Source of the DNA: Candidatus Omnitrophota bacterium
GTDB taxonomy: Bacteria > Omnitrophota > Gorgyraeia > Zapsychrales > Zapsychraceae
Direction of reading: 5' to 3'
DNA length: 64,000 nucleotides
Assembly: GCA_029261055.1 (NCBI GenBank)
Contig: JAJDCA010000014.1
Location: forward strand, 5,295 to 69,294
The notes beneath the pieces were generated by a model, which was not told where the DNA came from, made no database searches, and saw nothing but the letters and a program-made list of their open reading frames with translations. This document shows, one piece after another, positions 3,886 through 61,597 of the stretch (the first letter of the stretch is position 1; every line of letters starts with the position of its first letter). A program made the position numbers and the translations under genes.

Positions 3886-4024
3886 AAATTAATATTTTTA
3901 GAAGAATTCTATCATTATTTACTGCAATAGGTTGTGTAGATTTTGGGATTATTTACTTTTTGCTGTTCTTGTAAGTTATTATTCTTCAATGTATTATGAT
4001 TTTTTTAGCTGTGTTTTGGGCCCC

Positions 4025-4055
4025 TTGACACTTATCAAAAATATGTTATCTTTTC
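4025..4055 (+). promoter_or_regulatory. promoter of giant gene 1: TTGACA, 16-nt spacer, extended -10 TGTTATCTT. Contains a 16-mer, AATATGTTATCTTTTC, also found upstream of giant gene 2
   Basis: The motif at 4040-4055 is identical to 13629-13644. Confidence 0.5.
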
Positions 4056-4166
4056 ATTATCTGAACAAGAAAACGTTTTTTCTACAAAATTATGCCAATA
4101 ACCTGCCTTCCTATCGTCAGGCAGCCACGCCACGGATTGGTTGAATTTATCAATATTGGAGGAAAT

Positions 4167-7100
4167 ATGAGCATTTTTATAAAAAAACAACGCTTTTGTC
4201 TATTTTATAGGCTTTTATCTGCATTTATTGCCGTGGCATTCGTAACCACAACAATTATTCCGCGAGGATATGCAAATACAATGATTAATGGTCAGGGGTC
4301 AGTGCTCAGTCTTCCGATTCCCGGTACGATGGTCACGGCAAGTGAGGCGTTTGTGCCTACGCTGATTAAAGGGATTACGATTCATCCGGAGAATCCGTTA
4401 CAGTTCAATTTTATTGTAGATACGGGAAATACGGGCATGCAGCAAGGGAAGGTGCTTGAAGATGAAACGACCAAATTGGTGAAATATTTTTTGGCGGCAC
4501 TTACGGTACCGGAACAAGAGATGTGGGTCAACTTGAGTCCGTACGAAGAGAATCGTATTATTGCCGATGGCTTGGGCGATACTGAGTTAGGACGCGATAT
4601 GCTCGCGCAGGATTATTTGCTCAAACAATTGACTTCTTCTTTGATGTATCCGGAAGACGAATTAGGTGAAAGATTTTGGGATCGCGTGTATGCCCGTGCG
4701 CAAGAAGAATTCGGAACGACGGACATTCCGATGAATACGTTTAACAAGGTGTGGATTGTACCGGAGAAGGCTGTGGTGTTTGAGGACGAGAAGACATCGA
4801 GTACGTATGTGTTGGAGAGTCATTTGAAGGTGATGTTGGAGGAGGACTATGTTACGATGGAACATAATACGGATCGTAGGGGTCTGATTCATCAAACCCA
4901 GGACAAGGGCATGATAAATCATGCCCCTACGGATATCATCCGCGAAATCCTCATTCCCGAAATCGAACGCGAAGTCAACCACGGAAAAACCTTCGCCAAT
5001 CTCCGTCAAATTTACAATTCCATGATTTTAGCGACGTGGTACAAACAAAATCTCAAACAATCCCTTTTAGGGCAAGTTTACATCGACCAAAATAAAACCA
5101 AAGGCATCGACACCGAAGACAAAAAAATTACCCAAAAAATCTACAACCAATACGTCGAATCCTTCCAAAAAGGCGTCTACGACTACATCAAAGAAGATTA
5201 TGATCCCGTCACCCAGCAAATCGTTCCGAGAAAATATTTCTCGGGAGGATTATTAGGACCAGTTACATCAAATCCTGATTTTTCAATGGTTGTTTTAACA
5301 AATACGAAAGATATCGATAGAAGTTTGTTAGGTAAAAATCCGCAGTTTAGTGCTTTGTTTAATTTGGCAGATTTAGGGGGTGAGTCCAAAAGCATATTAG
5401 AAATCACACAAGCGGTCAATAATGCAACAATGATCGATAAGTATATGGTTAAGGAAAAAGTGTTGGATAAAGACGAAGCCATGACAGTGAAAGATGTATC
5501 GATGATGACGAAAAAAAAGGATGGAATAAAAAAAGTAATAAAAAGGGGAGAGATAAGAAACTTTCTTTTTTCCTTATTAGCAATTCCGTTGTTTTTTTCG
5601 ATTTTTATTCCTCCTGTAATTATTGTGCAGATGTTTGTTTCTGTAAATGATATGATGTCTCCTAATCCTTTTTTTCAAATAGAATCAGTGCAAACTAATA
5701 ATAGGCTAGAAGTACAAAATCCGTTTTCAGAAGATCTATTTAAGAAGACTATTAACGATTTGGAAAAATTTTTTCGGAGCGATAAGTCTGCAAATAAAGA
5801 ATTGAAATTCATGAAAATTAGTGAGTTTGTTGCACAATTGAAGTTTGCGCTACGAGATAATGTTAATCTTGATAATTTGAGTTGGGACATGGAGGATATT
5901 AACGAACCTCTTGTAACAGATAAAGATATATTTAACAATATTGCAAAGAGTACATCTAAATGGTTGGAAAATGCTAATGAGGAAACTCAAAAGAGGATAA
6001 TAAATCAACTTTTAGACGTTGAGGATCTTCATTATAGTAGTAAGTATAATTTTTTTAGGTCAATTGGGGGATACCTTAGAAAGCACGATCATGCCATGCT
6101 GGTCGCTCCCGAGATACGGTCAACGGTTAAGTTTCTTACGGAGACGATTGGTGAAGATGTGATGCTCGCGGATGTGCGTTTGCTTGATCAATTGAAAGCA
6201 ATAGAGAATGATGAAGAGTATCAGAATGAAGGCGGTCGTAAGAATTCCACAGGACGTGCGATTCATGACTTTATTGATGATTTAGAAAAAAAATTTGATA
6301 AGAATATGGATGTAATAAAAATGAACGAATTGGGTATTAATGTTGATGATGAAAAAAAGAAACTTGAGAATTGGCGCAATACGTTTCATAAGAAATATTA
6401 TGTTAATCAACGTATTGGATATGCAGGTATTTCGGAAGGAGAAAAGAAAAGTGCTATGAAGGTTATTAATGAAGTAAGTAGATCTTTAATAAAGAAATTC
6501 TTTAACCAATATATTGTTAAAAAGGGTAATAAGCTGATTAACACTAGGTTCTCAGCATCACAAGATCATACAATTCAACCTGAAAAATGGCATTCAGGTG
6601 GGTGGAGTGTAAAAGATAATTTCATTGGTGTTCCTCTCGCCATTGGTTCTTTGATTGCCTTGGAAAGAGAATACAAAAAGGGGGTGTATCGTGACATCAA
6701 TAACACTGGACAGGAGGTTGTCAACTTGGTGTTAGAAGAGTTTTATCAAATCAGACGATCAGAACGTGCTTCTGATTTGAGTAATGTGATTGGTCAAGTT
6801 TTGAATACGTACCGTAGGTATCAAAATTCGACAAATTCGATTGGTCAAGAAATTAAAGAAGATGCTGTTAATGATTTTCGGGATTTAGGAATAGATGAGA
6901 GTGAAATCAGGGAGTTGATCAAATCCAAAGATTCCTTCGGTGCCAAAATGTTGTACATAGCGAAACGTATCCTTTCGGATAATGTAAAAACAGACGAACA
7001 GGCTATTCAACATGCGATTAATGGGCTATCGATACCAGAGCTTGATATTCTTGATGAATTTATTGATGGTGTAGAAACGAAAGTTACAAAAGAAGATCCC

Positions 7101-8639
7101 GTATCTTTAGCAGATGTTTTAAATAAGGTTAGAGAAAAATTGGTTTATAAGTCAATCGTAAGGCCTAGGAAGCGTAATTATAGCATAATCATATCCGAAG
7201 ATTATGATTACGGATCTACTGACACGGATTCAGAGCTCAAAGAACGATTGATACGCCTCAATACAAAAAAAATGATCGCTGACAGGAAAAAAGAGTTAGG
7301 AGATAAGGCTATGGTGGCGGAAATGAAGGATATTGATAAGTTTCAGAAAGTCAGGGGTATTAATCTGGATGCTTCGATGATGGATGATGAAAGTTTGCGT
7401 AAAGAGATTAAGGTTGCTCTTGTGAATATGGATGAGCATATAAAAAAATGGGAAGGTGCGAAAAATGAGTTTCTTGAAACTTTAAATAAAATTTTGTATG
7501 AATATAGGGAGTATTCTGAAATAGAAAATAAGCTTGAGGGAGGTCTTTCAGAAAATGATGAGAAAAAGCAATATGATGTGAAGGATAGCGAAGAAAGTAT
7601 TTCTTTTTCACTAGGAATTAGTGACCAAATTAGGCTGGCGGTTGAAAGATTTTCCAACATAGTTTGGGATAAAGAAATAAAACAATATAATAGGGCAAAA
7701 CTTTGGGAAGGTGATGAGTCTCAAGGTGAGACTAATGAAGAAGAAATTGATAGAGTTCGTCAAGATGTGATAGAAATAACGCATATTGGTATTCAGGAAA
7801 TTATTAATAATATTTTAAAAGACCTGAGTAGTGAAGGTAAAGTTTTGAATTTAATAGAGCATTATTCTATTGTCGAGAAAGTATTAAATAATTTGATAAG
7901 TGAGGAGCCTACATTGAATGATGAGGTAGATTGGATAAATGTGGCATTAAGGGCTATTAATCGATTTAAAGAGATGACACAAAGATTAACGGTTGTTGAT
8001 CAAAATCTTAATATTTCAGGGGAGTCGGTTAACGATTCTGAAAAATATATTAATGAAAATGTGCTGGGACTTAAAAGGGATGCGAATACGTATATTTTGA
8101 AGATGTATTTAAAGTTTATGGGGATTGAAATAACAACCAATGCAGAATTATTTAATGAAGATGTAGATAGTTTTGGAAAGGGGCTTCTTGATTCATTGTT
8201 TAATGCTCTTAACGATAAAGATCATCCTATTAATAATGAAGGTTTTGGTCCATTTGATGATGGTATTGATTTAGAAGATGACGATTCTAATTTAGAAGAT
8301 GATCCTGATGTGGGTGATGATTCAATGATCACGCAAACTGTTAATCATATAAATAACCCTGGAGGTATCAACCTTGACGCGGCGATGTTGGATTTGCAGA
8401 TTAGGCGGGATGGGAATGGGGTGCCGTTGCCGGTTGCGGAGCAGGATTTTTCAACAATGCATATTGAAGGGTTTTTGCCGATTATGATAGATATGGCACC
8501 GGTGAGCATTCCTATGCTGCTCGGTTTCGCGGATGAAGATGGCGGCGTGCCGGTGACCGGTTGTCCTTCGGATGAAGAGGGAATCAATTGCAACCACGAT
8601 TTCATTTTAACCAAGCAGGAAGACGAGATATTTTTGTAA
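4167..8639 (+). CDS. giant secreted / membrane-anchored protein, paralog 1 (1490 aa from the ATG at 4167 with a GGAGG ribosome-binding site)
   Basis: Strong RBS plus an N-terminal hydrophobic signal or anchor. A ~330-aa N-terminal domain is shared with the protein at 13647-17357. An internal 28-aa hydrophobic segment, a long K/E/D-rich low-complexity core and an acidic D/E run follow. The C-terminal ~60-aa motif (GGINLD..LDLQ..HIEGFLP..PV) is shared with the paralog. Confidence 0.8.
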   Translation: MSIFIKKQRFCLFYRLLSAFIAVAFVTTTIIPRGYANTMINGQGSVLSLPIPGTMVTASEAFVPTLIKGITIHPENPLQFNFIVDTGNTGMQQGKVLEDETTKLVKYFLAALTVPEQEMWVNLSPYEENRIIADGLGDTELGRDMLAQDYLLKQLTSSLMYPEDELGERFWDRVYARAQEEFGTTDIPMNTFNKVWIVPEKAVVFEDEKTSSTYVLESHLKVMLEEDYVTMEHNTDRRGLIHQTQDKGMINHAPTDIIREILIPEIEREVNHGKTFANLRQIYNSMILATWYKQNLKQSLLGQVYIDQNKTKGIDTEDKKITQKIYNQYVESFQKGVYDYIKEDYDPVTQQIVPRKYFSGGLLGPVTSNPDFSMVVLTNTKDIDRSLLGKNPQFSALFNLADLGGESKSILEITQAVNNATMIDKYMVKEKVLDKDEAMTVKDVSMMTKKKDGIKKVIKRGEIRNFLFSLLAIPLFFSIFIPPVIIVQMFVSVNDMMSPNPFFQIESVQTNNRLEVQNPFSEDLFKKTINDLEKFFRSDKSANKELKFMKISEFVAQLKFALRDNVNLDNLSWDMEDINEPLVTDKDIFNNIAKSTSKWLENANEETQKRIINQLLDVEDLHYSSKYNFFRSIGGYLRKHDHAMLVAPEIRSTVKFLTETIGEDVMLADVRLLDQLKAIENDEEYQNEGGRKNSTGRAIHDFIDDLEKKFDKNMDVIKMNELGINVDDEKKKLENWRNTFHKKYYVNQRIGYAGISEGEKKSAMKVINEVSRSLIKKFFNQYIVKKGNKLINTRFSASQDHTIQPEKWHSGGWSVKDNFIGVPLAIGSLIALEREYKKGVYRDINNTGQEVVNLVLEEFYQIRRSERASDLSNVIGQVLNTYRRYQNSTNSIGQEIKEDAVNDFRDLGIDESEIRELIKSKDSFGAKMLYIAKRILSDNVKTDEQAIQHAINGLSIPELDILDEFIDGVETKVTKEDPVSLADVLNKVREKLVYKSIVRPRKRNYSIIISEDYDYGSTDTDSELKERLIRLNTKKMIADRKKELGDKAMVAEMKDIDKFQKVRGINLDASMMDDESLRKEIKVALVNMDEHIKKWEGAKNEFLETLNKILYEYREYSEIENKLEGGLSENDEKKQYDVKDSEESISFSLGISDQIRLAVERFSNIVWDKEIKQYNRAKLWEGDESQGETNEEEIDRVRQDVIEITHIGIQEIINNILKDLSSEGKVLNLIEHYSIVEKVLNNLISEEPTLNDEVDWINVALRAINRFKEMTQRLTVVDQNLNISGESVNDSEKYINENVLGLKRDANTYILKMYLKFMGIEITTNAELFNEDVDSFGKGLLDSLFNALNDKDHPINNEGFGPFDDGIDLEDDDSNLEDDPDVGDDSMITQTVNHINNPGGINLDAAMLDLQIRRDGNGVPLPVAEQDFSTMHIEGFLPIMIDMAPVSIPMLLGFADEDGGVPVTGCPSDEEGINCNHDFILTKQEDEIFL

Positions 8640-8692
8640 ATTGACATTTTGGTAATTTTTTGTAGAATGAGCTATACTTAAGTTGAGGTGAC

Positions 8693-8893
8693 ATGATGAA
8701 ATTTAAAAATATGACAGAAATATTTACGGTATATGAAAATCAGTGGGTTGCGCTAACTGATGACGACAAAATTATTGCTTCTGCAGATACTTTAGAATCT
8801 GTTTTAGAAAAGGCCTCTAAAAAAGGATATGATACTCCCCTCACTGCAAAAATCCCCGACTCTAAACACGAGTTTGTTTTATGTCATCTTTAA
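8693..8893 (+). CDS. small 66-aa protein of the kind found paired with retropepsin-like proteases (possibly DUF5678-like, family name from memory only)
   Basis: Its stop overlaps the start of the downstream protease gene. Ribosome-binding site GAGGTG. Confidence 0.45.
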   Translation: MMKFKNMTEIFTVYENQWVALTDDDKIIASADTLESVLEKASKKGYDTPLTAKIPDSKHEFVLCHL

Positions 8894-10593: not shown

Positions 10594-11451
10594 ATGGAAA
10601 ATATTGTAGAAAATAAAACACAAGATGTGGGGATTGAATGGCAGAAAGTCGATGGGTTTACGGATATCACATATCATAAAGCCGACGGTATTGCAAAAAT
10701 TACAATTAATCGACCTGAGGTACGCAATGCCTTTCGTCCTTTGACGGTGCACGAAATGTCAGAAGCTTTGGCTGATGCGCGCGATGATGAAGATATTGGG
10801 GCGATTATTTTAACAGGTGAAGGTGAGAAAGCTTTTTGTTCTGGAGGGGATCAAAAAATTCGTGGCGAAGCCGGATACAAAGATCATAAATCTGGAAATA
10901 AAAATCGATTAAATGTGTTGGATTTTCAGCGACAGATGCGTACGTGTCCGAAACCAATTATTGCGATGGTGGCTGGGTATGCTGTGGGTGGCGGTCACGT
11001 TTTGCATTTATTGTGTGATATCACAATTGCTGCCGACAATGCGATCTTTGGACAAACTGGCCCGAAGGTGGGGTCATTTGACGGTGGTTACGGCGCGAGT
11101 TACATGGCACGGATTGTTGGACAAAAGAAGGCGCGAGAAATTTGGTTTTTGTGTCGTCAGTACAGTGCCCAAGAAGCGTTAGATATGGGATTGGTGAACA
11201 AAGTTGTTCCTTATGCCGATTTAGAAAAAGAAACGGTTCAATGGTGCCGTGAAATTTTAGTTAATTCTCCGATGGCCATACGCTGCCTTAAAGCTGCACT
11301 TAATGCTGACTGCGACGGCCAAGCCGGTCTGCAAGAACTCGCGGGTAATGCCACGATGTTATTTTACATGACCGAAGAAGGCCAGGAAGGCCGCAATGCC
11401 TTTGTCGAAAAACGTAAACCGGATTTTAAAAAATTTCCACGAAGACCTTAA
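10594..11451 (+). CDS. menB: 1,4-dihydroxy-2-naphthoyl-CoA synthase (crotonase fold)
   Basis: Enoyl-CoA hydratase fold with FCSGGDQ and [11 protein letters not shown] motifs. Lies in a men gene neighbourhood. Confidence 0.85.
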
Positions 11452-11535: not shown

Positions 11536-12417
11536 ATGATTTCATCACTCAAACTTTGGTTTATGGCCATTCGGCCAAAAACATTAACCGCCGCCGTGGC
11601 GCCGGTGTTGATCGGCACGGCGATGGCTTTCGGCGATGGCATTCATCATTTGCCAACCGCTTTTCTTTGTCTTTTCGGCGCTATTCTTATTCAAATCGGT
11701 ACGAATTTGGCCAATGATTATTTCGATTTCAAAAAAGGGACGGACGACGTAGATCGTATCGGGCCGACGCGGGTTACGCAGGCAGGGCTGATTTCACCCG
11801 AAGTGGTGAAATTTGCCTTTATTTTGACATTTGTTCTATCGGCATTGGTGTGTATTGCATTGGTTATCCGTGGTGGTTGGCCGATTGCGGTGATCGGTAT
11901 TCTTTCGATTATTTCCGGCATTCTTTACACGGCAGGGCCGAAACCTTTAGGGTATATGGGGCTGGGAGATGTTTTTGTTTTTGTTTTCTTTGGTCCTGTG
12001 GCAGTCGCTGGAACGTATTATGTGCAATCCTTTGAAATGAATATGGCCGTCATCCTTGCCGGTGTGGCGCCGGGTTTAATTTCCGCCGGAATTTTAACCG
12101 TCAATAATTTGCGAGATATTGTTGGAGATAAAAAATCTGGTAAAAAAACGCTGGCTGTTCGTTTTGGTCGTTCGTTTGCACAGAGTGAATATTTGTTTTC
12201 GATGATTGCCGCCTCGCTGGTGCCGGTATTGATTTATGCTCTCATTCAGGATCATTTACCCATTTTAATGGGTACAGTCGTGAGTCTTTTGGCTATTCCT
12301 ATTATGAAAAAGGTTTTGGTTTCTACGGATGGCCCTGCGCTTAACCTTGCCTTAGCGAAAACCGGAAAATTATTATTAATTTACAGTGTGCTTTTTTCGA
12401 TAGGTTGGATTTTATGA
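11536..12417 (+). CDS. menA: 1,4-dihydroxy-2-naphthoate polyprenyltransferase (UbiA family)
   Basis: Multi-pass membrane protein with the NDYFD Asp-rich prenyltransferase motif. Confidence 0.8.
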   Translation: MISSLKLWFMAIRPKTLTAAVAPVLIGTAMAFGDGIHHLPTAFLCLFGAILIQIGTNLANDYFDFKKGTDDVDRIGPTRVTQAGLISPEVVKFAFILTFVLSALVCIALVIRGGWPIAVIGILSIISGILYTAGPKPLGYMGLGDVFVFVFFGPVAVAGTYYVQSFEMNMAVILAGVAPGLISAGILTVNNLRDIVGDKKSGKKTLAVRFGRSFAQSEYLFSMIAASLVPVLIYALIQDHLPILMGTVVSLLAIPIMKKVLVSTDGPALNLALAKTGKLLLIYSVLFSIGWIL

Positions 12418-13490
12418 AAATCATTTCTTTTCAAACCTACAGATACGTTTTGCCTTTTGTGAATCCGATATCTGTGCGAGGTGTTAAGCTTTCGCAGAGG
12501 GAGGGGCTGATTATTCATTGCACGTCAGAACAAGGTATTGAAGGTTTTGGCGAGGCGGCCCCCTTACCGGGATTAAGTGAAGAAAGTTTAGAAGATGTTA
12601 TTGAAGAAGTCGAAATGTTTGAAAGTGTTTTGTTAGATCAGGATGTTCCAAAAAATATTGAAAAGTTTGAAGGCGCTTTGACAGAATGGCTTTCCGCATA
12701 TTCGCTTAGTCCATCGTTACAGTTTGCTATCGAAACGGCCATGTTAAATTTGATGGCGAATAGTCGTAAGATTCTTTTAAGTCAGCTATTCGAAGAATCC
12801 CCAGTAGAGAACATTAGTGTTAATGGTTTATTACAAGGGACAATGGATGAGGTTGTTTTACAAGCGAAGGCATGTTTGTTAAATGGATTTACCGCCATGA
12901 AATTAAAGGTTGGTCGAAAAGATATGGATGAAGATATTCGTAATGTTCAGGCGGTATCAGAAATTATTAGAGATAAAGCTTTGTTACATTTGGATGCGAA
13001 TCAGGCTTGGACATTAAAGGAAGCCGTTAAGTTTGGGCAAGCTATCGGTTGCGCGTGTGTGGATTATATTGAAGAGCCATTACAAGATGTGGCAGGGATA
13101 CCAGAATTTTTTCATCAGACATTAATCCCTGCGGCTTTGGATGAATCATTACAGAATTTAGATATTAAAGATGTTGGTTCGATCGAAGGGGCTGATGTTG
13201 TAGTTGTTAAACCTACTATTTTGGGCGGCATTGAAAAAACTTACCATCTTATCAAATATGCCAGAGAACGTGCTTTACGGTGTGTTGTCAGTTCCTCATT
13301 TGAATCTTCCATTGGAGTTACTACTTTAGCGCATTTGGCCGCAAGCCTCACACCTCGCACCGCAGCTGGATTAGATACCTTAAAATTCTTTCAAAAAGAT
13401 GTCTTGAAAAAAGGTGTTTTTATTCAAAAAGGTAAGATTCCTCTTTCTCAATGCCGGGTCCGGAAAGAAAATGTCCAAATCAATGTTTAA
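12405..13490 (+). CDS. menC: o-succinylbenzoate synthase (enolase superfamily)
   Basis: MKLKVG...LDANQAW...IEEP catalytic Lys/Asp/Glu pattern of the MR/MLE family. Sits in men context. Confidence 0.75.
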   Translation: MDFMKIISFQTYRYVLPFVNPISVRGVKLSQREGLIIHCTSEQGIEGFGEAAPLPGLSEESLEDVIEEVEMFESVLLDQDVPKNIEKFEGALTEWLSAYSLSPSLQFAIETAMLNLMANSRKILLSQLFEESPVENISVNGLLQGTMDEVVLQAKACLLNGFTAMKLKVGRKDMDEDIRNVQAVSEIIRDKALLHLDANQAWTLKEAVKFGQAIGCACVDYIEEPLQDVAGIPEFFHQTLIPAALDESLQNLDIKDVGSIEGADVVVVKPTILGGIEKTYHLIKYARERALRCVVSSSFESSIGVTTLAHLAASLTPRTAAGLDTLKFFQKDVLKKGVFIQKGKIPLSQCRVRKENVQINV

Positions 13491-13628
13491 ATATAAAATA
13501 TTTATTTATGAAGATATTCTTGCCGTTGTGCGCTGAATACGTTTTCTCTTACCATTTTTTCAGCGTCATGAATTAATCTTACCAAGTCTTATTCTAATAA
13601 AAATATATTTTTGGCAGGGTAGTAAGGA

Positions 13629-13644
13629 ATATGTTATCTTTTCC
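13629..13644 (+). promoter_or_regulatory. conserved 16-mer AATATGTTATCTTTTC (extended -10-like), identical to 4040-4055
   Basis: Exact repeat seen upstream of both giant paralogs. Here it abuts the annotated ATG (13647), so the true start is probably downstream (ATG 13659). Confidence 0.5.
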
Positions 13645-13646
13645 AT

Positions 13647-16600
13647 ATGAAGTCGATTATGCGGAGTATTTTTTATTTTATTATTTATGTAATACTGTTA
13701 ACTTTTGGGATGACGACATGTTTTCCTTCAGGGGTAAGCTGTGCTCAGGATGTTTCAAGTTATCCTGTTGAATTAGGCTTGCCGCCTATTGGGCAAAGTC
13801 TTTCTTTAAGTCCTCTCTATGTGCCGCCATTGTTCAAAGGGTTAATGGTTTATCCTCAAGAGCCTTTTCGTTTTGATTTTATTATGGACACTGGGCATGC
13901 AGGTTTATTGCCTGATGAAAAAGCTACAGAAGGGGAAAAGTTGATGCGTTATTTTCTTGCAGCTTTGACTATTCCTGAGGATGAACTGTGGGTCAACCTT
14001 TCGCCGTACGAGGCAGATCGGATTATTCCTGATGCATTGGGTGTGACAGAAATGGGGCGGGATATGCTGGCGCAGGATTATTTACTCAAACAGTTGACGG
14101 CATCATTGATGAATCCTGAAGAAGAGTTAGGGGGAGAATTTTGGGATAGGGTGCACACACAGGCTTATGCACAGTACGGGGTGACGAATATTGACATGAA
14201 CATGTTTCATAAAATTTGGATTGTGCCGGAGAAGGCATTAGTTTATGAAAATACAGGGCAGGTATTTATTTTGGAGTCAAAGTTGAATGTTATGTTGGAG
14301 GAGGATTACAAGGCATTGAACAACAATAATCCCAATGCCGAGTCCCGAGCAACCCTTGGTGAAAATCAGTTGCGAGGGATCTCTACTAAAATTATCCGTG
14401 AAATTCTCATTCCCGCAATCAAACAAGAAATCAACCACGGCCAAACCTTCGCCCCTTTACGCCAAATTTATCATTCCATGATTCTCGCCACGTGGTACAA
14501 GCAGGCATTACAAGAAAGCCTGATTAATCAATCCTATTCCAATCAAAAAAAGACATTGGGTGTGGATATTGAAGATAAAGACGTTAAAGATAAAATTTAT
14601 CAGCAATACATTGCAGCCTTCAAGCAAGGAGTGTCTGACATTATCAGAGAAGATTATGATCCAGTCACCCAGGAAATTATTCCGCGAAAATATTTCTCTG
14701 GTGGGTTGATCGGAAAAGTTAAATTTATCGCAACCAACGATGCCTCCCAACTCACTACTGCCCAAGCCGTAGGCGACTGGGCACTTTTAGCAGGAGATGT
14801 ACAGCTTCGTAATTATTTAGAAATAGATTTAGGTGTGTCGGTGAATAAAATTAATACAGATGAGTATGTAAAAATACTTAATGATAAAGTATTTCAGAAT
14901 GTAGCAGCATTACTTGAGCAGAATAAATTTAGTCAAGCAAAGAAATTACTGTCTGTAGTCAGGAAAGGTTATGAAGAAATTAAACAGGTTAATCAAAATG
15001 CTGCGGTGGGAAGTCTTAATTATAAACGAGCAAAGATTGTTGAGTTGAATAGTAAGCATGTTGAGAATTTGATTCATGATATTGTTAGAGATGAATCGAA
15101 TATTGGTTTTTTATCTATTGATTATGAAGTTCGTAATCTTTTAAAAGTTTTTTTTGAGGAATATAATATTACAGAAGATGGGTTTAGGTTTTTTTTAGAT
15201 CATGTTTTACATGGAATGAGTATAGGCGATCTTAAAGAACGAATAGAAAAATTCTTTTTATGGGGGAATGCGAAAGTAACGGATGAAAAATTATCAAAAG
15301 AACTTGCCCAAAAGATATGGAATTTAGATTTTGAAGGGGGCGTAGGCCTAGAAACGTTTCCTGAGCGATCACGATTTGGTGAGAAAATTATTTTAAATCT
15401 TATTCAAAAATTGATGGATATTAATAAGCAGGAGTTAAATGTTGGAATTATTGGGGGGGGATGGTTTCCTGATAATGGGATGCCTTTTTCTAATGGACCA
15501 ATTATTACAGGAAAAATGGCTTACCGAATTGGGGAAATATGTTCTGCTTGTAGAGTTAGCGGGTTAGATATTTTTTTTCCTGTTGAAAAAGTTGAAGATT
15601 CTATAGGAAATATTCTTTTGGTAGATAAGGACGGATATTATGTTTCTGTGCAGGGGTCGAATATTTTAATAGAACCGTTTCTTGATATGCAAAAACGGTT
15701 GTTAAAAAAGAGAAAAATACTTTTAGCGATGCGGCAAGCTTCAGGAGATAATCCAGAGGTTTATGTGGTTGAAAAAAATGAAGGTTTGATTGAAGCAGGA
15801 GATCGTATAGTAAGAAATCCTCTTGATCGATATGTAGAAAGATTTCATGATGTTAATCGAGGTGGTCAAGGGGTTAAATTGAAGAATTTACATTTTCAGA
15901 GAGCAGGAAAAAATTTTGAGTTGTACAGTGAAAAGAAATTTGATGGGATATATACAGCTAATACGGGTTGGAGAAATTTGCCTGAAACGTATTTGGATGG
16001 TATGCAAAAATGGGGAAAGAAAATTAAAAAGGGAGGTTTTTTAGTAAGTGAAATTAATTTTCCAAAGGGGTTCCCTCTTGTTGTAGGTGAATTCCAAAAA
16101 GGAGAAGATGAGTTGTCTTTAATGAAACTCCATTTTTCTATGTGGGATTATTATTCAATTATTTCATCTGGAAGAATTTTTGATAGTAAAGATGCTTTTG
16201 ATCATATCGTCGAGACGAAATATCGTAATATTCTTATGGAGGTTTGGAAAAAATTGATCAATATTAAAGGTGGGGATTTAACAATAATAGGAGCGGACCT
16301 TACTGAAGAGTTTATTGATAATGTAAAAGTTGAATTAAACGGCTTAGCCGCCGTCCACATTGCCGATGCGGAGGAGGGGCGGGAAGGGCATTTGGTGGTG
16401 ACGATTGATTTTGATAAGTCAATGATGGGGGGGGATAACTCTGGGCGTAAAAAAAATAAACGGACTGTTTTTGTGGAAACATTGGTTAAGAAGTGGATAA
16501 AGAAAAATAAGGGTAAGAGAATAAGAAAAATTCCTATAAGTGGTGCAGCATTAGGAGGGATTGTGATGCTCAGTAAAGAGACTGCGCTTAAAGCTGTTAA

Positions 16601-17357
16601 ATATTCTAGTGATGGAAAAGTTGAAACAACATATAAACCGGCATTGCTTGATGAATATGATTTTTTGGTATTTATGAAAAAAATTTTAAATGAGTCCCCA
16701 GGTGCGTATCAGAGTGTGGAATTCTTAAAGGTTAGGATAAATTTAAAAAATAAATTTGATAATATCATAGATAAAATTCGGAAAGTAGAAGAGGAAAATA
16801 GTAATAAAAAATTAAAAGGAAAGAAAAGAATTGGAGGGCAGCCCGGTTATAACAAAATGGCATTGGATGATTTTGTGGCATATACAAGAAAAAGGAAGAA
16901 ACATCTCGATACATTTCCAATTAAATCAATAGAATTGCAATTTTTATTTGGTTTTCCTAAAAGGGAGAATATTTCAACATATCGCTCTCGATATTTAGGT
17001 GGGCTTATTATAAAGGAGCCTCTGGACAAAAATGACAAGATAAATTTTTTAAAGTTAATTCGTAGATGGGCAAAAAAATATGAAGGGGAAAATGAAATTA
17101 TTAAAGAAATGCCTGGGAAAATTAACGTTATGCTAAAAGATTTTGCGGCTTTGGCTTTACCTCAGCAAGGTGGAGTTGATTTTAATCCGCAATATTTGGA
17201 TTTACAAAGGCAAGGGAATAGGATAGATTCAGCTGTACTGACAGAAGGCCTGACGCAAGGTCAGATTCATTTTGATGGTTTGGAGCCTGTGGTTTTACGC
17301 GTTTTGCCGGTGACGGATATTGTGGGGTTGTTTGAGGCTTCAGGAGTTATGTGGTAA
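13647..17357 (+). CDS. giant secreted protein, paralog 2 (1236 aa)
   Basis: N-terminal signal peptide. The ~330-aa N-terminal domain is ~55-60% identical to paralog 1, with ~80% nucleotide-identity tracts. The core is divergent, and the C-terminal motif (GGVDFN..LDLQ..HFDGLEP..PV) is shared. Confidence 0.8.
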   Translation: MKSIMRSIFYFIIYVILLTFGMTTCFPSGVSCAQDVSSYPVELGLPPIGQSLSLSPLYVPPLFKGLMVYPQEPFRFDFIMDTGHAGLLPDEKATEGEKLMRYFLAALTIPEDELWVNLSPYEADRIIPDALGVTEMGRDMLAQDYLLKQLTASLMNPEEELGGEFWDRVHTQAYAQYGVTNIDMNMFHKIWIVPEKALVYENTGQVFILESKLNVMLEEDYKALNNNNPNAESRATLGENQLRGISTKIIREILIPAIKQEINHGQTFAPLRQIYHSMILATWYKQALQESLINQSYSNQKKTLGVDIEDKDVKDKIYQQYIAAFKQGVSDIIREDYDPVTQEIIPRKYFSGGLIGKVKFIATNDASQLTTAQAVGDWALLAGDVQLRNYLEIDLGVSVNKINTDEYVKILNDKVFQNVAALLEQNKFSQAKKLLSVVRKGYEEIKQVNQNAAVGSLNYKRAKIVELNSKHVENLIHDIVRDESNIGFLSIDYEVRNLLKVFFEEYNITEDGFRFFLDHVLHGMSIGDLKERIEKFFLWGNAKVTDEKLSKELAQKIWNLDFEGGVGLETFPERSRFGEKIILNLIQKLMDINKQELNVGIIGGGWFPDNGMPFSNGPIITGKMAYRIGEICSACRVSGLDIFFPVEKVEDSIGNILLVDKDGYYVSVQGSNILIEPFLDMQKRLLKKRKILLAMRQASGDNPEVYVVEKNEGLIEAGDRIVRNPLDRYVERFHDVNRGGQGVKLKNLHFQRAGKNFELYSEKKFDGIYTANTGWRNLPETYLDGMQKWGKKIKKGGFLVSEINFPKGFPLVVGEFQKGEDELSLMKLHFSMWDYYSIISSGRIFDSKDAFDHIVETKYRNILMEVWKKLINIKGGDLTIIGADLTEEFIDNVKVELNGLAAVHIADAEEGREGHLVVTIDFDKSMMGGDNSGRKKNKRTVFVETLVKKWIKKNKGKRIRKIPISGAALGGIVMLSKETALKAVKYSSDGKVETTYKPALLDEYDFLVFMKKILNESPGAYQSVEFLKVRINLKNKFDNIIDKIRKVEEENSNKKLKGKKRIGGQPGYNKMALDDFVAYTRKRKKHLDTFPIKSIELQFLFGFPKRENISTYRSRYLGGLIIKEPLDKNDKINFLKLIRRWAKKYEGENEIIKEMPGKINVMLKDFAALALPQQGGVDFNPQYLDLQRQGNRIDSAVLTEGLTQGQIHFDGLEPVVLRVLPVTDIVGLFEASGVMW

Positions 17358-17440
17358 TAAAAATAGTTGCGATTTAAAAAATATCTGGATGTGACTAAAA
17401 GAGCATGGTATTCTTTGAATAGAGAAAGGGAGGTTATAAA

Positions 17441-17659
17441 ATGTATAAGTCCAGTATTGTGAATGATATTCTTCAAAGAGCTTCTTCATTATCTCTGGAG
17501 GAGCAAAATTTTATTGTGGAGACGCTTAATAAGCGTATTCATGAGTATCGGAGAAATAAAATTGTACGACGGGTGAAGGAGGCTGAAAAGAATTACGGTA
17601 AAGGGAATGTAAGCAAAGGTAAGGTTAGTGATTTAATGAGTGAGTTAGATGATGATTAG
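17441..17659 (+). CDS. putative antitoxin (72 aa)
   Basis: AGGGAGG ribosome-binding site. Overlaps by 11 nt with a RelE/YafQ-like toxin gene. Confidence 0.45.
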   Translation: MYKSSIVNDILQRASSLSLEEQNFIVETLNKRIHEYRRNKIVRRVKEAEKNYGKGNVSKGKVSDLMSELDDD

Positions 17660-17921
17660 TCTAATTTGGGATGCCGCGTTTATTCGGATTCTTAAAAAAT
17701 GGAAGAAAAAACATCCGCATTTAATTAAAACTTTCCAAGAAGTGCTCTCTGAATTTGTTAAAAATCCTTTTCAACCTTCCCTACGAACACACTGTTTGAG
17801 TGGTAAGTTAAAAGACTGTTGGGCTTGTAGTATTACTTACGAATATCGCGTAGTATTTAAATTTATTTCCAAGAATAAAGTGCTGCTTATCGATATTGGA
17901 ACGCATGACGAAGTATACTAA
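17649..17921 (+). CDS. RelE/YafQ-family type II toxin (mRNA interferase)
   Basis: C-terminal HCLSGKLKDCWACSITYEYRVVFKF..LLIDIGTHDEVY matches the YafQ/RelE signature. Confidence 0.65.
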   Translation: MMISLIWDAAFIRILKKWKKKHPHLIKTFQEVLSEFVKNPFQPSLRTHCLSGKLKDCWACSITYEYRVVFKFISKNKVLLIDIGTHDEVY

Positions 17922-19299
17922 TTATCCTCCGCAGGTTTGTTTTAAAATCCAATCAAATAAAATCTTTATTATTTGCGGGCAGCAAATTGTAACATATGCG
18001 CAGTTTTTTGATGCTGTTGGTGGTGTGATTGATTATTTTCAATCAAGCGGAATTAAGTCTAAAGATCGTGTTGGAATTTGCTGCGCTAATAGTGTTGAGT
18101 ACGTGGCAGCATTAATAGCCCTGTGGCGTATTGGCACTGTCGCTTGTCTTTTGAGTCCGCGCTTACCACAGGAGGCGTTGCAGCAGCAATGTAGCAATTT
18201 GAGTTGTCAGAATGTTTTAACGAGCTTTCCTGAAGTGCCCTATTCAGATAAATTAACAGAAACAAATCCAAAATGGTCTTTGCCGGTAGATCAAGAGGCT
18301 ACGATTATGTTTACCTCCGGCAGTAGTGCCTCGCCCAAAGCGGTTTTGCATACGATTGGTAATCATTATTTCAGTGCCAAGGGCGCGAATGTTCATATTC
18401 CGTTAGTCGCTGGGGATCGATGGTTATTAACGCTTCCATTGCATCACGTCGGGGGTTTAAGTATTTTATTTCGTGCACTTTTGGCCGGGGCAACACTGGT
18501 TATTCCCGAGAAAGATGAGCCTATTGAGGCGGCAATACGGCGCTACGGCATTACGCATGTATCGATGGTGCCGACGCAGATTTATCGTTTATTAGGGGAA
18601 AATGAAGAAGGTGATTTAAAAAGTTTGAAGGCGATTCTTGTCGGCGGAGGGCCGATACCGGAAGCCCTTTTACAAAAAGCAATGGAAAAAGGTTTCCCGG
18701 TTCATACGACGTACGGCTTAACAGAAATGGCTTCGCAAGTTGCCACGTCAAACGTGTTGACGTCGGAAACTATTTCAAATGGCGGTAGAGTGTTGGAGGA
18801 TAGAGAAGTAAATGTTTCTGAAGAAGGTGAAATTTTAGTGCGTGGCAAGACGCTTTTTCAAGGTTATGTAGAAGGCGGGCACATTGATTGTTCGTTTGAC
18901 GCAGGCGGTTGGTTCGCAACCGGTGATTTAGGTGAGCTCAACGACGAAGGTTATTTAAAAGTGACTGGACGTAAAGATAATATGTTTATCTCCGGTGGCG
19001 AAAATATTCAGCCGGAAGAAATTGAACGGCATTTGTGTCGGTTAGAAGGCGTTGAGGAGGCTATCGTCATTCCCGTAGAACATGCGGAATTTGGCTTTCG
19101 CCCGGTGGCGTTTATAAAGTACATGAATGGAAAATCAATAACCTCCGAAGAAATCAAAAGAACTCTGCAACAATATCTCCCTAAATTCAAAATTCCCGAT
19201 ACCTTTTACGATTGGCCGGAAGGCATTATTAGTGAGGGGATTAAGCCAAGTCGGCTAGTATTTAAGCATTATCTTGAGCGAACAATTCCACGATCTTAG
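17896..19299 (+). CDS. menE: o-succinylbenzoate-CoA ligase (adenylate-forming enzyme)
   Basis: AMP-binding motifs TSGSSASPK, YGLTE and GDLG, in men context. The start is uncertain (17896 or 17905). Confidence 0.75.
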   Translation: MERMTKYTNYPPQVCFKIQSNKIFIICGQQIVTYAQFFDAVGGVIDYFQSSGIKSKDRVGICCANSVEYVAALIALWRIGTVACLLSPRLPQEALQQQCSNLSCQNVLTSFPEVPYSDKLTETNPKWSLPVDQEATIMFTSGSSASPKAVLHTIGNHYFSAKGANVHIPLVAGDRWLLTLPLHHVGGLSILFRALLAGATLVIPEKDEPIEAAIRRYGITHVSMVPTQIYRLLGENEEGDLKSLKAILVGGGPIPEALLQKAMEKGFPVHTTYGLTEMASQVATSNVLTSETISNGGRVLEDREVNVSEEGEILVRGKTLFQGYVEGGHIDCSFDAGGWFATGDLGELNDEGYLKVTGRKDNMFISGGENIQPEEIERHLCRLEGVEEAIVIPVEHAEFGFRPVAFIKYMNGKSITSEEIKRTLQQYLPKFKIPDTFYDWPEGIISEGIKPSRLVFKHYLERTIPRS

Positions 19300-49853: not shown

Positions 49854-51863
49854 ATGACGATTAATTTTAAAGAACGAGCCAATTTTATCTGGAGTATTGC
49901 TGATCTCCTGCGCGGTGATTATAAGCAGTCAGAATATGGCCGGGTGATTTTGCCTTTAACAGTTTTACGGCGGCTTGATTGCGTGCTTGATCCAACCAAA
50001 GCGAAAGTTTTAGATGCCCTTCCTAAAGTTAAGAAGTTTTCTCCAACAGCCGCAGAGGAAGTGCTGAAACGTAAAGCAAAATTGTCCTTTTATAATAAAA
50101 GTAAATTTGATTTCCAAAGGCTAGCGGCGGATCCCAATGATATTGCCGCTAATTTACGTAATTACCTGAACGGGTTTTCCAGGAATGCACGTACCATTCT
50201 GGAGCATTTTAATTTTATTGAGCATATTGAACGTTTGGATAAATCTAATCTCCTTTACAAAATTGTCAAACGCTTTGCGGAAATCGATCTTCACCCGGAT
50301 AAAGTTAAGAATATTGAAATGGGTTATATTTTTGAGGAGCTTATCAGAAAATTTGCTGAAATATCCAATGAGACAGCCGGGGAGCATTTTACACCACGGG
50401 AAGTTATTCGTCTGATGGTCAACGTTTTATTTTTAAATGACAAAGACGTTTTGACTAAAAAAGGGATTGTTAAAACCATTTATGATCCGGCCTGCGGAAC
50501 AGGCGGGATGCTTTCGACGGCAGAGGAATATTTACTTGAGTTAAACCCTGACGCAGATTTACGTGTGTTTGGTCAGGAAATTAATCCTGAAACTTATGCT
50601 GTTTGCAATTCTGATATTCTTATTAAAGGGCAGAATGCCGATCAAATTAAATTTGGCAATTCATTTACTCAAGACGGGTTAAAAGATGAAAAGTTTGACT
50701 ACATGCTAAGCAATCCTCCGTTTGGTGTCGAGTGGAAAAAGGTTGAGGCCGAAATTAGGAAAGAACATGACAAACTTGGGTTTACCGGCCGGTTCGGTGC
50801 AGGTTTGCCGCGTATTAGTGATGGTTCATTTTTGTTTTTACAGCATATGATTTCTAAAATGCGCTCTGCAAATGGCGGAGCGCGTTTAGGCATTGTTTTT
50901 AACGGTTCACCGCTTTTTTCAGGTGGTGCCGGCAGCGGCGAGAGTGAAATTCGAAGATGGATTATTGAAAACGATATGCTCGAAGCGATTATTGCTCTGC
51001 CTAATCAACTTTTTTATAACACAGGCATTGCGACGTATATTTGGATTGTGACAAATCGTAAAGAAAAAAAGCGTAAAGGAAAGATTCAATTGATCAACGC
51101 CGCGTCTTTTTTTCAGAAGATGTCGAGAAGCCTTGGCAATAAACGTAATGAAATCGGAGACAAACACATTGCAGAGATTACGCGGATTTATGGGAATTTT
51201 AAAAAAGGAGAGTTCTGCAAAATATTCGATAATAACTATTTCGGTTACACACGGGTGACCGTTGAGCGTCCGCTTAAGTTGAATTTTATGGCAATCCCAG
51301 AAAGAATCGCACGACTGGAGAATGAATCGGTATTTAAGAATTTAGCGAAATCAAAGAAAAAGGGTAATAAGGCATTAACAGAAAATGAAACAGGAGAAAA
51401 ATATCAAAAATTGATTAAAGATGCACTTGGATCCTTGAATGCCAAAAAAATATATAAAAACCGTGAGAAATTTATTGATGATTTGAAATCAGCGTTTGAG
51501 AAAAATGGGGATAATGTCAAGTCTCCGATTATCAAAATGATCATTAAAGCCCTCAGCGAGCGGGATGAAACAGCGGACGTATGTCTTGATGCCAAAGGCA
51601 ATTCCGAACCCGATTCAGAACAACGCGATTATGAAAACGTGCCTTTGCAGGATGATATTGAAAAATATTTTAAGCGGGAAGTTCTACCGCATGTTCCGGA
51701 CGCGTGGATGGATCGAAGCAAAGATAAAGTCGGATACGAAATCAATTTTACTAAGGAATTTTATAAATACAAACCTCTGCGAAGTCTTGAAGAAATTCGT
51801 AAGGATATTCTGGCTCTTGAGAAAGAGACAGAAGGGCTTTTGGAGGAAGTATTACATGGATAA
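49854..51863 (+). CDS. hsdM: Type I restriction-modification system methyltransferase subunit
   Basis: 669 aa with NPPFG (motif IV) and DPACGTGGML (motif I). Confidence 0.9.
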   Translation: MTINFKERANFIWSIADLLRGDYKQSEYGRVILPLTVLRRLDCVLDPTKAKVLDALPKVKKFSPTAAEEVLKRKAKLSFYNKSKFDFQRLAADPNDIAANLRNYLNGFSRNARTILEHFNFIEHIERLDKSNLLYKIVKRFAEIDLHPDKVKNIEMGYIFEELIRKFAEISNETAGEHFTPREVIRLMVNVLFLNDKDVLTKKGIVKTIYDPACGTGGMLSTAEEYLLELNPDADLRVFGQEINPETYAVCNSDILIKGQNADQIKFGNSFTQDGLKDEKFDYMLSNPPFGVEWKKVEAEIRKEHDKLGFTGRFGAGLPRISDGSFLFLQHMISKMRSANGGARLGIVFNGSPLFSGGAGSGESEIRRWIIENDMLEAIIALPNQLFYNTGIATYIWIVTNRKEKKRKGKIQLINAASFFQKMSRSLGNKRNEIGDKHIAEITRIYGNFKKGEFCKIFDNNYFGYTRVTVERPLKLNFMAIPERIARLENESVFKNLAKSKKKGNKALTENETGEKYQKLIKDALGSLNAKKIYKNREKFIDDLKSAFEKNGDNVKSPIIKMIIKALSERDETADVCLDAKGNSEPDSEQRDYENVPLQDDIEKYFKREVLPHVPDAWMDRSKDKVGYEINFTKEFYKYKPLRSLEEIRKDILALEKETEGLLEEVLHG

Positions 51864-52494
51864 CGGGAGCGGTAAACAACAAAATAAAAATTGGTTTGGT
51901 CAAAATTGGATAGCTTTAATTGCGCTTTTAATCTCAATTTTCTCGGTTTTTTATACCCATTTGAATTATGGCCTTCAGACTAAGTTATCTCATTTGCAGA
52001 TAAAACCAATGATAAAAACGTATTTTGATTTGCCTGTTGATAAAAATCCTATTTTTGTTGTGGCTAATGAAGGTAGTGTCCCAGCAGTATCTCTTAGCTG
52101 TGGTTATTATGTTTTCACATTTAATAAGAATCAGAAAAAAGTTGTGGTGGCAGGTAAGGCAGGACGAGTTTTTAGCCCAGGAGTGATATATAAAGAACTT
52201 TTTAACCCAACAGACTACGAATCAATGGAGTTGGTCGGAGTATCATCTGCCGAGAATACTCTTGTAATTTATCAATTTGATTTAATTTATTTTCGTAAAC
52301 AAGATATGGATGAATATTCAAGAAGGGAATATTATTTTGTAGATAATGGGCGTTTATTATCGCATTCGGAATATCGTTTGGATCCATTGTATCGTGATGT
52401 AATGTATCAGATTTCTCAGACAATTATTCCTGATTCTCAGTGGGATTCGGGTGCTTTGAGACAATATTTAGAAAATCAATCTGAATTTAAATGA
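51856..52494 (+). CDS. membrane-anchored hypothetical protein embedded between hsdM and hsdS (212 aa)
   Basis: ATG at 51856 overlaps the hsdM stop. One N-terminal transmembrane helix. No recognisable motif. Confidence 0.5.
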   Translation: MDNGSGKQQNKNWFGQNWIALIALLISIFSVFYTHLNYGLQTKLSHLQIKPMIKTYFDLPVDKNPIFVVANEGSVPAVSLSCGYYVFTFNKNQKKVVVAGKAGRVFSPGVIYKELFNPTDYESMELVGVSSAENTLVIYQFDLIYFRKQDMDEYSRREYYFVDNGRLLSHSEYRLDPLYRDVMYQISQTIIPDSQWDSGALRQYLENQSEFK

Positions 52495-52498
52495 AAGT

Positions 52499-53818: not shown

Positions 53819-54550
53819 ATGTTTAGCGAAAATAGATTTTATAATATTTATTGTGATGAAAGCTGTCATTTAGAGAATGATCATCAGAAAGTAATGACCC
53901 TTGGCGCACTTTGGTGTCTTAATGATGTTAAAAGGGATATGTTTTCTAAGATAAGAGAGATAAAGCGAGAACATGGCTTACCAAATCATTTTGAGATCAA
54001 ATGGACGAAGGTATCTCCTGCAAAGATAGATTTTTATATTGATATTTTAAAGACTTTTTTTGACGAATCAGATTTGCATTTTAGGGCGGTGATTATCAAA
54101 AACAAAGAGCATCTAGATCATACAAAGTTTGCAGGGCAGGATCATGACGTTTGGTACTACAAAATGTTTTTTTGTTTATTGAATGTTATTTTAGAGCCGC
54201 ATGCTTGTTATAAAATTTATCTTGATAAAAAAGACACTAGGGGTGCTGATAAAATTATCAAATTACATGATGTTTTGTGTAACCATCGATATGATTTTTC
54301 AAAAGAAATAATTCAGAATGTGCAGTCAGTTCATTCTCATGAGATAGAACTTCTTCAAGTGGCCGATCTTTTAATAGGAGCAGTTGGATATGTCAATAGA
54401 GGGATTAATACTAGCGAGGCAAAGTCTAAATTAATTTCGTACATCCGGGAACGTTCAGGGTATAGTTTATTAGCAACGACTCTTTTAAAAGAGGAAAAAA
54501 TGAATTTATTTTTTTGGGAGCCTAAGAAAGGTTTAGATAATGGCGAGTGA
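53819..54550 (+). CDS. DUF3800-family protein
   Basis: IYCDESCH near the N-terminus and LLQVADLLIGAVGY near the C-terminus match the DUF3800 pattern. Confidence 0.6.
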   Translation: MFSENRFYNIYCDESCHLENDHQKVMTLGALWCLNDVKRDMFSKIREIKREHGLPNHFEIKWTKVSPAKIDFYIDILKTFFDESDLHFRAVIIKNKEHLDHTKFAGQDHDVWYYKMFFCLLNVILEPHACYKIYLDKKDTRGADKIIKLHDVLCNHRYDFSKEIIQNVQSVHSHEIELLQVADLLIGAVGYVNRGINTSEAKSKLISYIRERSGYSLLATTLLKEEKMNLFFWEPKKGLDNGE

Positions 54551-55094: not shown

Positions 55095-55155
55095 GCTATT
55101 TAAAATATAACATACAAAATTATGAAAAACAAAGGAAAATTAGTTCAAAAAATAA

Positions 55156-55338
55156 ATGATAGAATCTAACCACAATCAAAGCGTTAAGATTGAAATAAAA
55201 ACACCTGCGGAGGAAAAGTCCTTGCAGGCTGTGGATTGTGTAAGCTGGGCCATATTCAGGAAACTGGAGTATAGGGATGATACGTATTACAATACCATCA
55301 GGGAAAAGATCATTGAAGAAAACCCTTTGTTTCCCTAA
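55156..55338 (+). pseudogene. possible C-terminal remnant of a second DUF3800-like gene
   Basis: The 60-aa ORF contains SLQAVDCVSWAIFRKLE, resembling the DUF3800 C-terminal LQ.AD....A motif. No N-terminal part is present. Confidence 0.3.
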
Positions 55339-55520
55339 GAATGATAAAGCCTCATTCGCTATTTACGAGGAACCCTGCGGAACCCCACGGATGAGGACTT
55401 ACTTATCTAGATCGACCGGGAATCCCCAGTCCTTTTTATATCTAATGTAAGTATATGCTATAGGTTGACATTTATCAACTAGAAAGCTATACCTTTTGTG
55501 TGGGTAAAAATCGAGCTAAA

Positions 55521-60527: not shown

Positions 60528-61597
60528 CTGAATTTCGTGACATTTTTTCCAGTTTAAATATTTTTCGATACATTACTTTTCGTGCCGGTATGGCTGGTGT
60601 GACAACATTTTTATTGTGTGTTGTGTTTGGTCCATATTTTATTAATAAACTTAAGAAAATGAAAATTCGGGAAATTGCCAAACGCGAAGATTGTCCGGAC
60701 TTGGATCAATTTCAGAATGCCAAAGAAGGTACGCCGACAATGGGGGGGGTGTTTATTGTAGGCAGTATTCTTTTGTCGGTTCTTTTATGGGCAGATTTAA
60801 GTAATCGTTATGTGTTGCTTACAATGGGAACATGTTTTTGGTTAGCTATTTTGGGTTGGGTCGATGACTATGTAAAATTAACACGAACAGCCCGCCGGGG
60901 GTTAAGCATGAAAACCAAATTGATTTGGCAAATCCTTTTGGGATGTTTTATTGGGACGTATGTTTTCTTTAATCCGGATACCTCAACGCAGTTAACTTTT
61001 CCATTCGTTAAGAGTTTTATTTTGAATTTAGGAATTTTATATATTCCTTTTGTGGCCCTCATTGTGATCGGAACGTCTAATGCCGTGAATTTAACTGACG
61101 GTTTAGATGGATTGGCCATAGGGTGTGTCTTGATTGTCAGTTTGACGCTAGCGATTGTGAGTTACATTACGGGGCATTTTCTTTTTAGTCAGTATCTTTT
61201 TATCCCTTTTGTTTCCGGTGCCGGGGAATTAGCCGTTTTTTGTACGGCGATGGTTGGCGCCAGTTTGGGGTTTTTATGGTTTAATTGTCATCCAGCCTCT
61301 GTGTTTATGGGGGATGTCGGCTCCTTGTCGTTGGGCGGGACATTGGGCGTGATTGCCGTTTTGATCAAACAAGAGCTGATGCTTGTGATCTTAGGCGGTG
61401 TTTTTGTGATCGAGGCATTATCCGTGATTTTGCAAGTGGCTTCTGTTAAATTTCGCGGAAAACGGATTTTTAAAGTTTCTCCACTGCATCATCATCTGCA
61501 GCTATCCGGTTGGAAGGAATCGAAAATCATCATACGTTTTTGGATTTTGGCCATTATTTTGGCGATGATTACTTTGACGATGTTGAAGATAAGGTAA
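60512..61597 (+). CDS. mraY: phospho-N-acetylmuramoyl-pentapeptide transferase
   Basis: NAVNLTDGLDGLA and FMGDVGS motifs, 10 transmembrane segments. Confidence 0.9.
   Translation: MFYYLAEFRDIFSSLNIFRYITFRAGMAGVTTFLLCVVFGPYFINKLKKMKIREIAKREDCPDLDQFQNAKEGTPTMGGVFIVGSILLSVLLWADLSNRYVLLTMGTCFWLAILGWVDDYVKLTRTARRGLSMKTKLIWQILLGCFIGTYVFFNPDTSTQLTFPFVKSFILNLGILYIPFVALIVIGTSNAVNLTDGLDGLAIGCVLIVSLTLAIVSYITGHFLFSQYLFIPFVSGAGELAVFCTAMVGASLGFLWFNCHPASVFMGDVGSLSLGGTLGVIAVLIKQELMLVILGGVFVIEALSVILQVASVKFRGKRIFKVSPLHHHLQLSGWKESKIIIRFWILAIILAMITLTMLKIR

Follow-up and report, generated by a model that had tools for sequence, protein, structure and literature searches.

Two G8 tracts in an exported-protein gene of an uncultured Omnitrophota bacterium, compared with poly-G/C contingency loci

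Poly-G/C contingency loci and the tracts of gene 2

Poly-G/C contingency loci, known from Campylobacter jejuni, Helicobacter pylori, Neisseria and Haemophilus, switch genes through intragenic G tracts of at least 7-8 nucleotides (nt), in which a change of one nucleotide shifts the reading frame and truncates an exported, variable protein (PMC6321876). The PhasomeIt cut-off for such tracts is at least 7 G/C, and in C. jejuni NCTC 11168 all G/C tracts of at least 8 nt vary (PMC6321876). We analysed a stretch of 64,000 nt from a Candidatus Omnitrophota bacterium (contig JAJDCA010000014.1; hereafter the window), in which an initial annotation had proposed two G8 tracts inside one large gene, gene 2, as candidate phase-variation switches. 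Contingency loci of this kind are the closest described systems to gene 2. On balance, we favor the view that the two tracts are incidental runs of glycine codons that are prone to slippage and have not been selected as switches. The elements on which the argument turns are as follows.

13647..17357, + strand: gene 2, an open reading frame (ORF) of 1236 amino acids (aa), member of an Omnitrophota-specific exported-protein family (sequence search)
13647..13745, + strand: predicted signal peptide (MKSIMRSIFYFIIYVILLTFGMTTCFPSGVSCA, then QD), with a basic n-region, a hydrophobic core and an AXA-like VSCA site
13776..14705, + strand: conserved N domain of the family, aa 44-353, containing WVNLSPYE, with PRKYFSGG at its end
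14706..17150, + strand: orphan "cargo" region holding both G8 tracts (homology searches)
15453..15460, + strand: G8 tract 1, codons G603-G604-G605 (GGG GGG GGA), 49% along the gene 2 ORF
16427..16434, + strand: G8 tract 2, last base of M927, G928-G929 (GGG GGG) and first base of D930, 75% along the gene 2 ORF
17151..17354, + strand: conserved C-terminal tag, or C-tag (GGVDFNPQYLDLQRQG...LEPVVLRVLPVTDIVGLF; alignment A2, 101 of 121 family proteins)
60742..60749, + strand: control G8 in mraY, ACA ATG GGG GGG GTG, encoding T-M-G-G-V of the GTPTMGG motif

The two tracts lie in frame within the gene 2 ORF, the first in the context ATT ATT GGG GGG GGA TGG (I-I-G603-G604-G605-W) and the second in the context ATG ATG GGG GGG GAT (M-M-G928-G929-D). 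The initial annotation was right about their presence, about the position of the second and about the amino-acid contexts GGGW and MGGD, which recur in the translation as IIGGGW and MMGGD; its position for the first, 15463-15470, is 10 nt too high and reads ggtttcct. Computed slips at tract 1 yield products of 639 aa (G7) and 608 aa (G9), and slips at tract 2 yield 950 aa (G7) and 930 aa (G9). All four products retain the signal peptide and the N domain and lose the C-tag, so the earlier statement that a 1-nt change at either tract would truncate the protein ahead of its tag is correct. The shifted frames past the tracts end after 1-37 codons and encode nothing conserved. A compensating double shift between tracts 1 and 2 is impossible because the alternative frames between them close within 37 codons.

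The comparison with contingency loci has two sides. In gene 2, as in those loci, the tracts are as long as the cut-off for candidate phase-variable sites, a change of ±1 shifts the frame, and the gene is of a type that suits the idea of a switch, being an exported and hypervariable paralogue. Differing tract lengths between assemblies, giving full-length and truncated forms, are a further likeness, seen in a related family gene (locus L040, described below). The gene 2 tracts differ from contingency loci in that they are not over-represented, sit in mid-gene and not close to the 5' end, and number two per gene; moreover, they are known as G8/G8 from two assemblies, the same tract occurs in the essential gene mraY, and the host is an uncultured Omnitrophota bacterium. 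Among the marks of a contingency locus, tract length and frame effect are found here, whereas over-representation and absence from essential genes are not. A switch at this locus, if real, would belong to the kind already known, and its occurrence in Omnitrophota would be new.

A second likeness is that short homopolymer tracts within genes yield frameshift variants in bacteria that are not classically phase-variable. Chlamydia and Omnitrophota both belong to the Planctomycetes-Verrucomicrobia-Chlamydiae (PVC) group. One paper addresses phase variation in Chlamydia trachomatis (PMC4514472) and another describes indels in homopolymeric tracts of Mycobacterium tuberculosis (PMC11898584). These cases rest on culture or deep sequencing, whereas gene 2 is known from assemblies alone. 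We found no literature linking Omnitrophota to phase variation, and the two main Omnitrophota genome papers mention neither homopolymers nor frameshifts.

Tract counts, chance expectation and recorded variation

The window has a GC content of 38.9%, with 14,854 G against 10,052 C on the + strand, and contains three G8 runs in total (the two in gene 2 and the one in mraY), no G7 and five G6. Dinucleotide shuffles (n=100) gave a mean of 1.38 G8 runs and reached three or more in 17 of 100 cases. Under a codon null, in which synonymous codons were resampled and the proteins kept, 0.79 runs of at least G8 were expected against 3 observed (P=0.056), 2.9 against 3 for runs of at least G7, and 10.4 against 6 for runs of at least G6. 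With expectations of 0.79-1.38 against 3, over-representation in the window is not significant, and the G8 count is not convincingly above chance. GGG makes up 25% of glycine codons in the window; GGG-GGG pairs (5.8 expected, 4 observed) and GGG-GGN pairs (23 expected, 14 observed) are not in excess. The strand bias of the window is strong: 8 G runs of at least 6 nt stand against a single C run on the + strand, which carries 47 of the 55 ORFs.

The G8 in mraY, which the initial annotation had already placed at 60742-60749, encodes M-G-G of the conserved GTPTMGG motif in the same ATG-GGG-GGG-G context as tract 2, and a slip there would cut an essential enzyme down to 82-97 aa. With one of the three G8 runs of the window in this gene, such tracts are not limited to dispensable or variable genes. 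The initial annotation had named an equal frequency of G8 in housekeeping genes as a finding that would count against a switch; this holds in part, since the essential mraY carries an identical tract.

For the phylum, we sampled 80 loci (1.29 Mb) around family genes from species representatives in GTDB. Under the codon null, family genes contained 47, 15 and 5 runs of at least 6, 7 and 8 nt against 88, 23 and 6 expected, and other genes contained 89, 16 and 6 against 146, 40 and 11. The counts of G runs drop geometrically with length (39, 14, 5, 2, 1) with no second peak, and the density of runs of at least G8 per 100 kb is 1.41 in family genes and 0.90 in other genes. The depleted runs, the geometric decay and the similar densities therefore leave no signature of selection for long tracts.

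The gene 2 locus itself is recorded in two assemblies of one sample. Apart from the contig of the metagenome-assembled genome (MAG), an exact-protein look-up found it in one Logan assembly only (run SRR15505515); the two are 100% identical over 18,938 bp and read G8/G8 in both. The gene 2 protein is 100% identical to P0001 (NCBI call, 1215 aa) and P0121 (Logan call, 1232 aa). Exact and homology protein searches found no truncated gene 2 variant on record, and pattern scans of Joint Genome Institute (JGI) metagenomes for tracts of 6-10 nt between exact 12-nt flanks gave 0 matches for both tracts.

Tracts at frameshifts were sought by altering each G/C tract of at least 7 nt by ±1 or ±2 (n=49, of which 46 lay in the loci and 3 in the window). 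A much longer ORF was restored at 2 of the 49, both in family genes, namely L059 (CAIUQE010000007.1) and L040 (CAIOPG010000018.1). In L059, removal of one G from a G7 at 12762-12768 joins a 964-aa N-domain ORF to a 275-aa C-tag ORF to give 1230 aa, and the shift is confined to a 44-nt window that contains the G7. At least 17 contigs drawn from several samples carry this frameshift, which is the same in all the places shown, and exact-sequence look-ups found no intact form on record. At the consensus level, therefore, no flipping of short G tracts is visible. A further case lies outside the family, in L017 (CAZIRV010000019.1), where a G9 at 1319-1327 splits a CusB-like RND efflux adaptor into 91 and 478 aa; G10 restores 579 aa and G7 restores 578 aa.

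Several other split family genes were considered as G-tract splits and rejected. In L024, L039 and L046 the break is a run of N; in L045 it is a TAA nonsense codon at 10273 in a conserved N-domain motif (GVTEMGRD to GVT*MGRD); L083 is interrupted by an IS630-like DDE transposase insertion (3898-8710), with its C-tag about 2.3 kb downstream; and the breaks in L082 and L084 do not coincide with a homopolymer. The only A/T site flagged in the control, an A8 of the window at 28228, was likewise rejected as a frameshift, as it marks an SSB stop overlapping the next ORF. Separately, G9-G10 tracts occur 0-2 nt upstream of ATG at L011:5484 (response regulator ORF), at L038:1645 and on the minus strand of L006 (2033); these may be Shine-Dalgarno-like or spacing-sensitive sites.

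Readings of the gene 2 tracts

That the G8 runs of gene 2 are incidental appears to us somewhat probable, because the counts are within chance, mraY carries a G8, the family shows no enrichment, two assemblies agree on G8/G8 and the L059 G7 is stable. We infer that selection does not maintain these tracts. They would arise where Gly-Gly(-Gly) is written with GGG codons beside a codon that ends or starts with G, here in the fast-evolving orphan cargo of an exported Omnitrophota family protein. The two runs would be the most slippage-prone sites of gene 2, both presently in the in-frame state, and a slip of ±1 would give a protein with signal peptide and N domain and without the C-terminal tag.

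Several results weigh against this view. G/C tracts of at least 7 nt lie exactly at frameshifts in 3 of 49 cases, two of them in family genes, compared with 0 of 181 A/T tracts of at least 8 nt in the loci. Both tracts fall in gene 2 with P=0.016 under the codon null; this value is post hoc, as is a binomial calculated by hand from Gly-Gly counts, which, given that 12 of the window's 92 Gly-Gly dipeptides fall in gene 2, yields P of about 0.09. The G8 density of the window is 3-5 times that of the phylum sample (Poisson P about 0.03-0.05). In a phylum that purges G tracts, those that persist could be tolerated or favored. The key family case is L040, where a G11 at 11225-11235 lies about 90 aa past PRKYFSGG in a 61-nt permissive window. 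The gene encodes 457 aa as assembled (G11) and would encode 981 aa with a canonical C-tag if the tract were G12. In exact-sequence look-ups, a single contig, 38,800 bp long, carried the G11 product (452 aa), and the predicted G12 product (976 aa) matched residue for residue on four other contigs, including one of 38,801 bp (ERZ1426836) and one of 305,356 bp. As both exact products are on record, L040 occurs in OFF and ON forms that are one G apart with the amino acids otherwise unchanged. The long G tracts of this type, whose length differs between assemblies so that the C-tag is toggled, fit slipped-strand phase variation as judged from assembled sequence; the difference may also be an assembly error at the G11-12 run.

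These results make it possible, if doubtful, that the gene 2 tracts are true simple-sequence contingency switches, in which slippage from G8 to G7 or G9 would toggle between a C-tagged form and an N-domain form and produce mixed surface or effector states. In favor of such a switch, the tract length reaches accepted cut-offs (PMC6321876), a change of ±1 removes the C-tag, and the gene is an exported, hypervariable paralogue with orphan cargo. The family also provides homologous genes with ON and OFF tract states in the L040 pair, together with the frameshifted G7 of L059, behind which the 275-codon frame and the C-tag are still open. All family tracts of at least G8 that were examined are located where the N domain ends or downstream of that point, and so is the L059 G7; L040, however, has a further G7 (10960) inside the N-domain coding region. 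On the other hand, chance counts, the mraY tract and the G8/G8 reading of both assemblies all speak against switching, as does the absence of family-wide enrichment and of bimodal lengths in the 80 loci. A switch does not predict two tracts, as one would suffice, nor a position in the middle and late part of the gene, away from the 5' end, and the tract that does vary, G11/12, is much longer than G8. A broader proposal, that Omnitrophota switch their largest exported paralogue family by poly-G contingency tracts and that gene 2 carries two such switches, is rather unlikely in our judgment. Equally tentative is the suggestion that the first traces of such a system are the L040 G11/G12 pair, the L059 G7 and L017 G9 frameshifts and the G9-G10 tracts 5' of start codons.

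Two further explanations leave the gene without any switching. Programmed recoding, in which ribosomal or transcriptional slippage on G8 would produce a set share of truncated isoforms from an unchanged gene, would suit L059: its G7 frameshift is fixed in at least 17 contigs and the frame downstream of it stays intact, a pattern that would fit obligatory recoding. At gene 2, however, the shifted frames close within 1-37 codons without encoding anything conserved, and no stimulatory structure turned up at the tracts, in work that included no search aimed at one. To our knowledge, G runs are not typical slippery sites, and we regard recoding at gene 2 as very improbable. Lower still is the probability that sequencing or assembly errors created the G8 runs. 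Metagenome assemblies do contain poly-G artefacts, and a low-complexity block at L044:5980-6045 (G24, C8, C9, G12 and G7) is probably one of them. However, the NCBI MAG contig and the independent Logan assembly differ at no base over 18,938 bp, and both tracts keep open an ORF of 1236 codons that joins the conserved N domain to the C-tag.

The exported-protein family and its setting

Gene 2 bears both marks of its family, a signal peptide followed by the N domain (with WVNLSPYE and PRKYFSGG), and the C-tag; the signal peptide was predicted by eye from sequence features. Searches among 5.8 billion proteins returned more than 4000 matches to gene 2, and those with a named source all come from Candidatus Omnitrophota MAGs or unclassified hydrothermal-vent bins. 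The matches span just the first 25-38% of the protein at 44-59% identity. The family layout comprises a signal peptide, an N domain of about 310 aa (WVNLSPYE...PRKYFSGG), a variable cargo and a C-tag of about 65 aa with the motif GGIDxNP..LDLQ..G...PVIINIxPVxNLPxLLG, found in 101 of the 121 family proteins collected. Two proteins that lack the C-tag, P0006 and P0064, share their last six residues, GVFQRV, which may reflect an insertion common to both or an alternative terminus. The main Omnitrophota genome papers do not mention the family.

At one extreme a family cargo has no recognisable domain; others carry GGDEF, methyltransferase, GNAT, HEAT, histidine-kinase ATPase or other domains. Many of them are enzyme or signalling domains of a cytoplasmic type despite the signal peptide. 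The gene 2 cargo (window 14739-17138; 800 aa, approximately aa 364/365-1164) matched only itself among 5.8 billion proteins, and again only itself in a full phmmer search of 1.84 billion representative proteins. The paralogue of gene 2 in the window, gene 1, shares the N domain and C-tag.

4092..8639, + strand: gene 1, 1515 aa, paralogue of gene 2 that differs from it in cargo; A8 runs at 5511, 6286 and 7265

The A8 at 5511-5518 to which the initial annotation drew attention is present in gene 1, yet it is unremarkable because the window has 13 A runs of at least 8 nt. Neither gene 1 nor gene 2 had any Pfam or NCBIfam match over the full-length protein, and a model of the family N domain matched no solved structure.

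The family resembles two described classes of protein. Polymorphic toxin and effector families pair a conserved trafficking module with swappable domains (PMC3482391), and the Omnitrophota family likewise joins one conserved N-terminal module to very diverse downstream domains in thousands of paralogues. Unlike the polymorphic families, it carries its variable part internally, with the C-tag behind it as a second conserved module, and many of the cargoes are of a housekeeping type (GGDEF, methyltransferase, GNAT and HEAT). When gene 2 was examined as a possible polymorphic toxin, its C terminus was the conserved tag, its cargo had no Pfam or NCBIfam match, and no toxin/immunity pair was identified. 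C-terminal sorting tags, such as the C-terminal domain (CTD) of the type IX secretion system (T9SS) and PEP-CTERM, are, like the C-tag of about 65 aa, conserved at the extreme C terminus of signal-peptide proteins, and a frameshift in a family gene would cost the protein its tag. Unlike T9SS CTD and PEP-CTERM, the C-tag matches no model, either from Pfam on full-length proteins or from NCBIfam, which was also run on 50 isolated tags. Its AlphaFold2 (AF2) model has no secondary structure (predicted template modelling score, pTM, 0.19) and, unlike T9SS CTD, shows neither a beta-sandwich nor any other fold.

The neighbours of gene 2 are menC on one side and, on the other, a small ORF together with a YafQ-like toxin. 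Gene 2, the small ORF and the toxin are inserted between menC and menE of a menaquinone operon (menB-menA-menC...menE; region 12405-19299 of the window). Elsewhere in the window (49854-58982), the dcw cell-wall cluster holds a type I restriction-modification system, placed between murE and murF and made up of hsdM, hsdS, a DUF3800 protein and an hsdR with a C-terminal S24 peptidase domain.

If the tracts of gene 2 do not switch, they provide a caution that G8 runs can arise by chance where the coding strand is rich in G and GGG codons are common, even in mraY. At the level of the family, the G11/G12 polymorphism of L040 is of somewhat greater interest than the G8 tracts of the window. If switching were true, ultra-small and probably host-dependent Omnitrophota would vary their exported repertoire by the mechanism of surface variation that pathogens use, and the phylum, which is uncultured, would yield its first evidence of phase variation. 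It would also give a handle on the role of an unannotated family with more than 4000 members.

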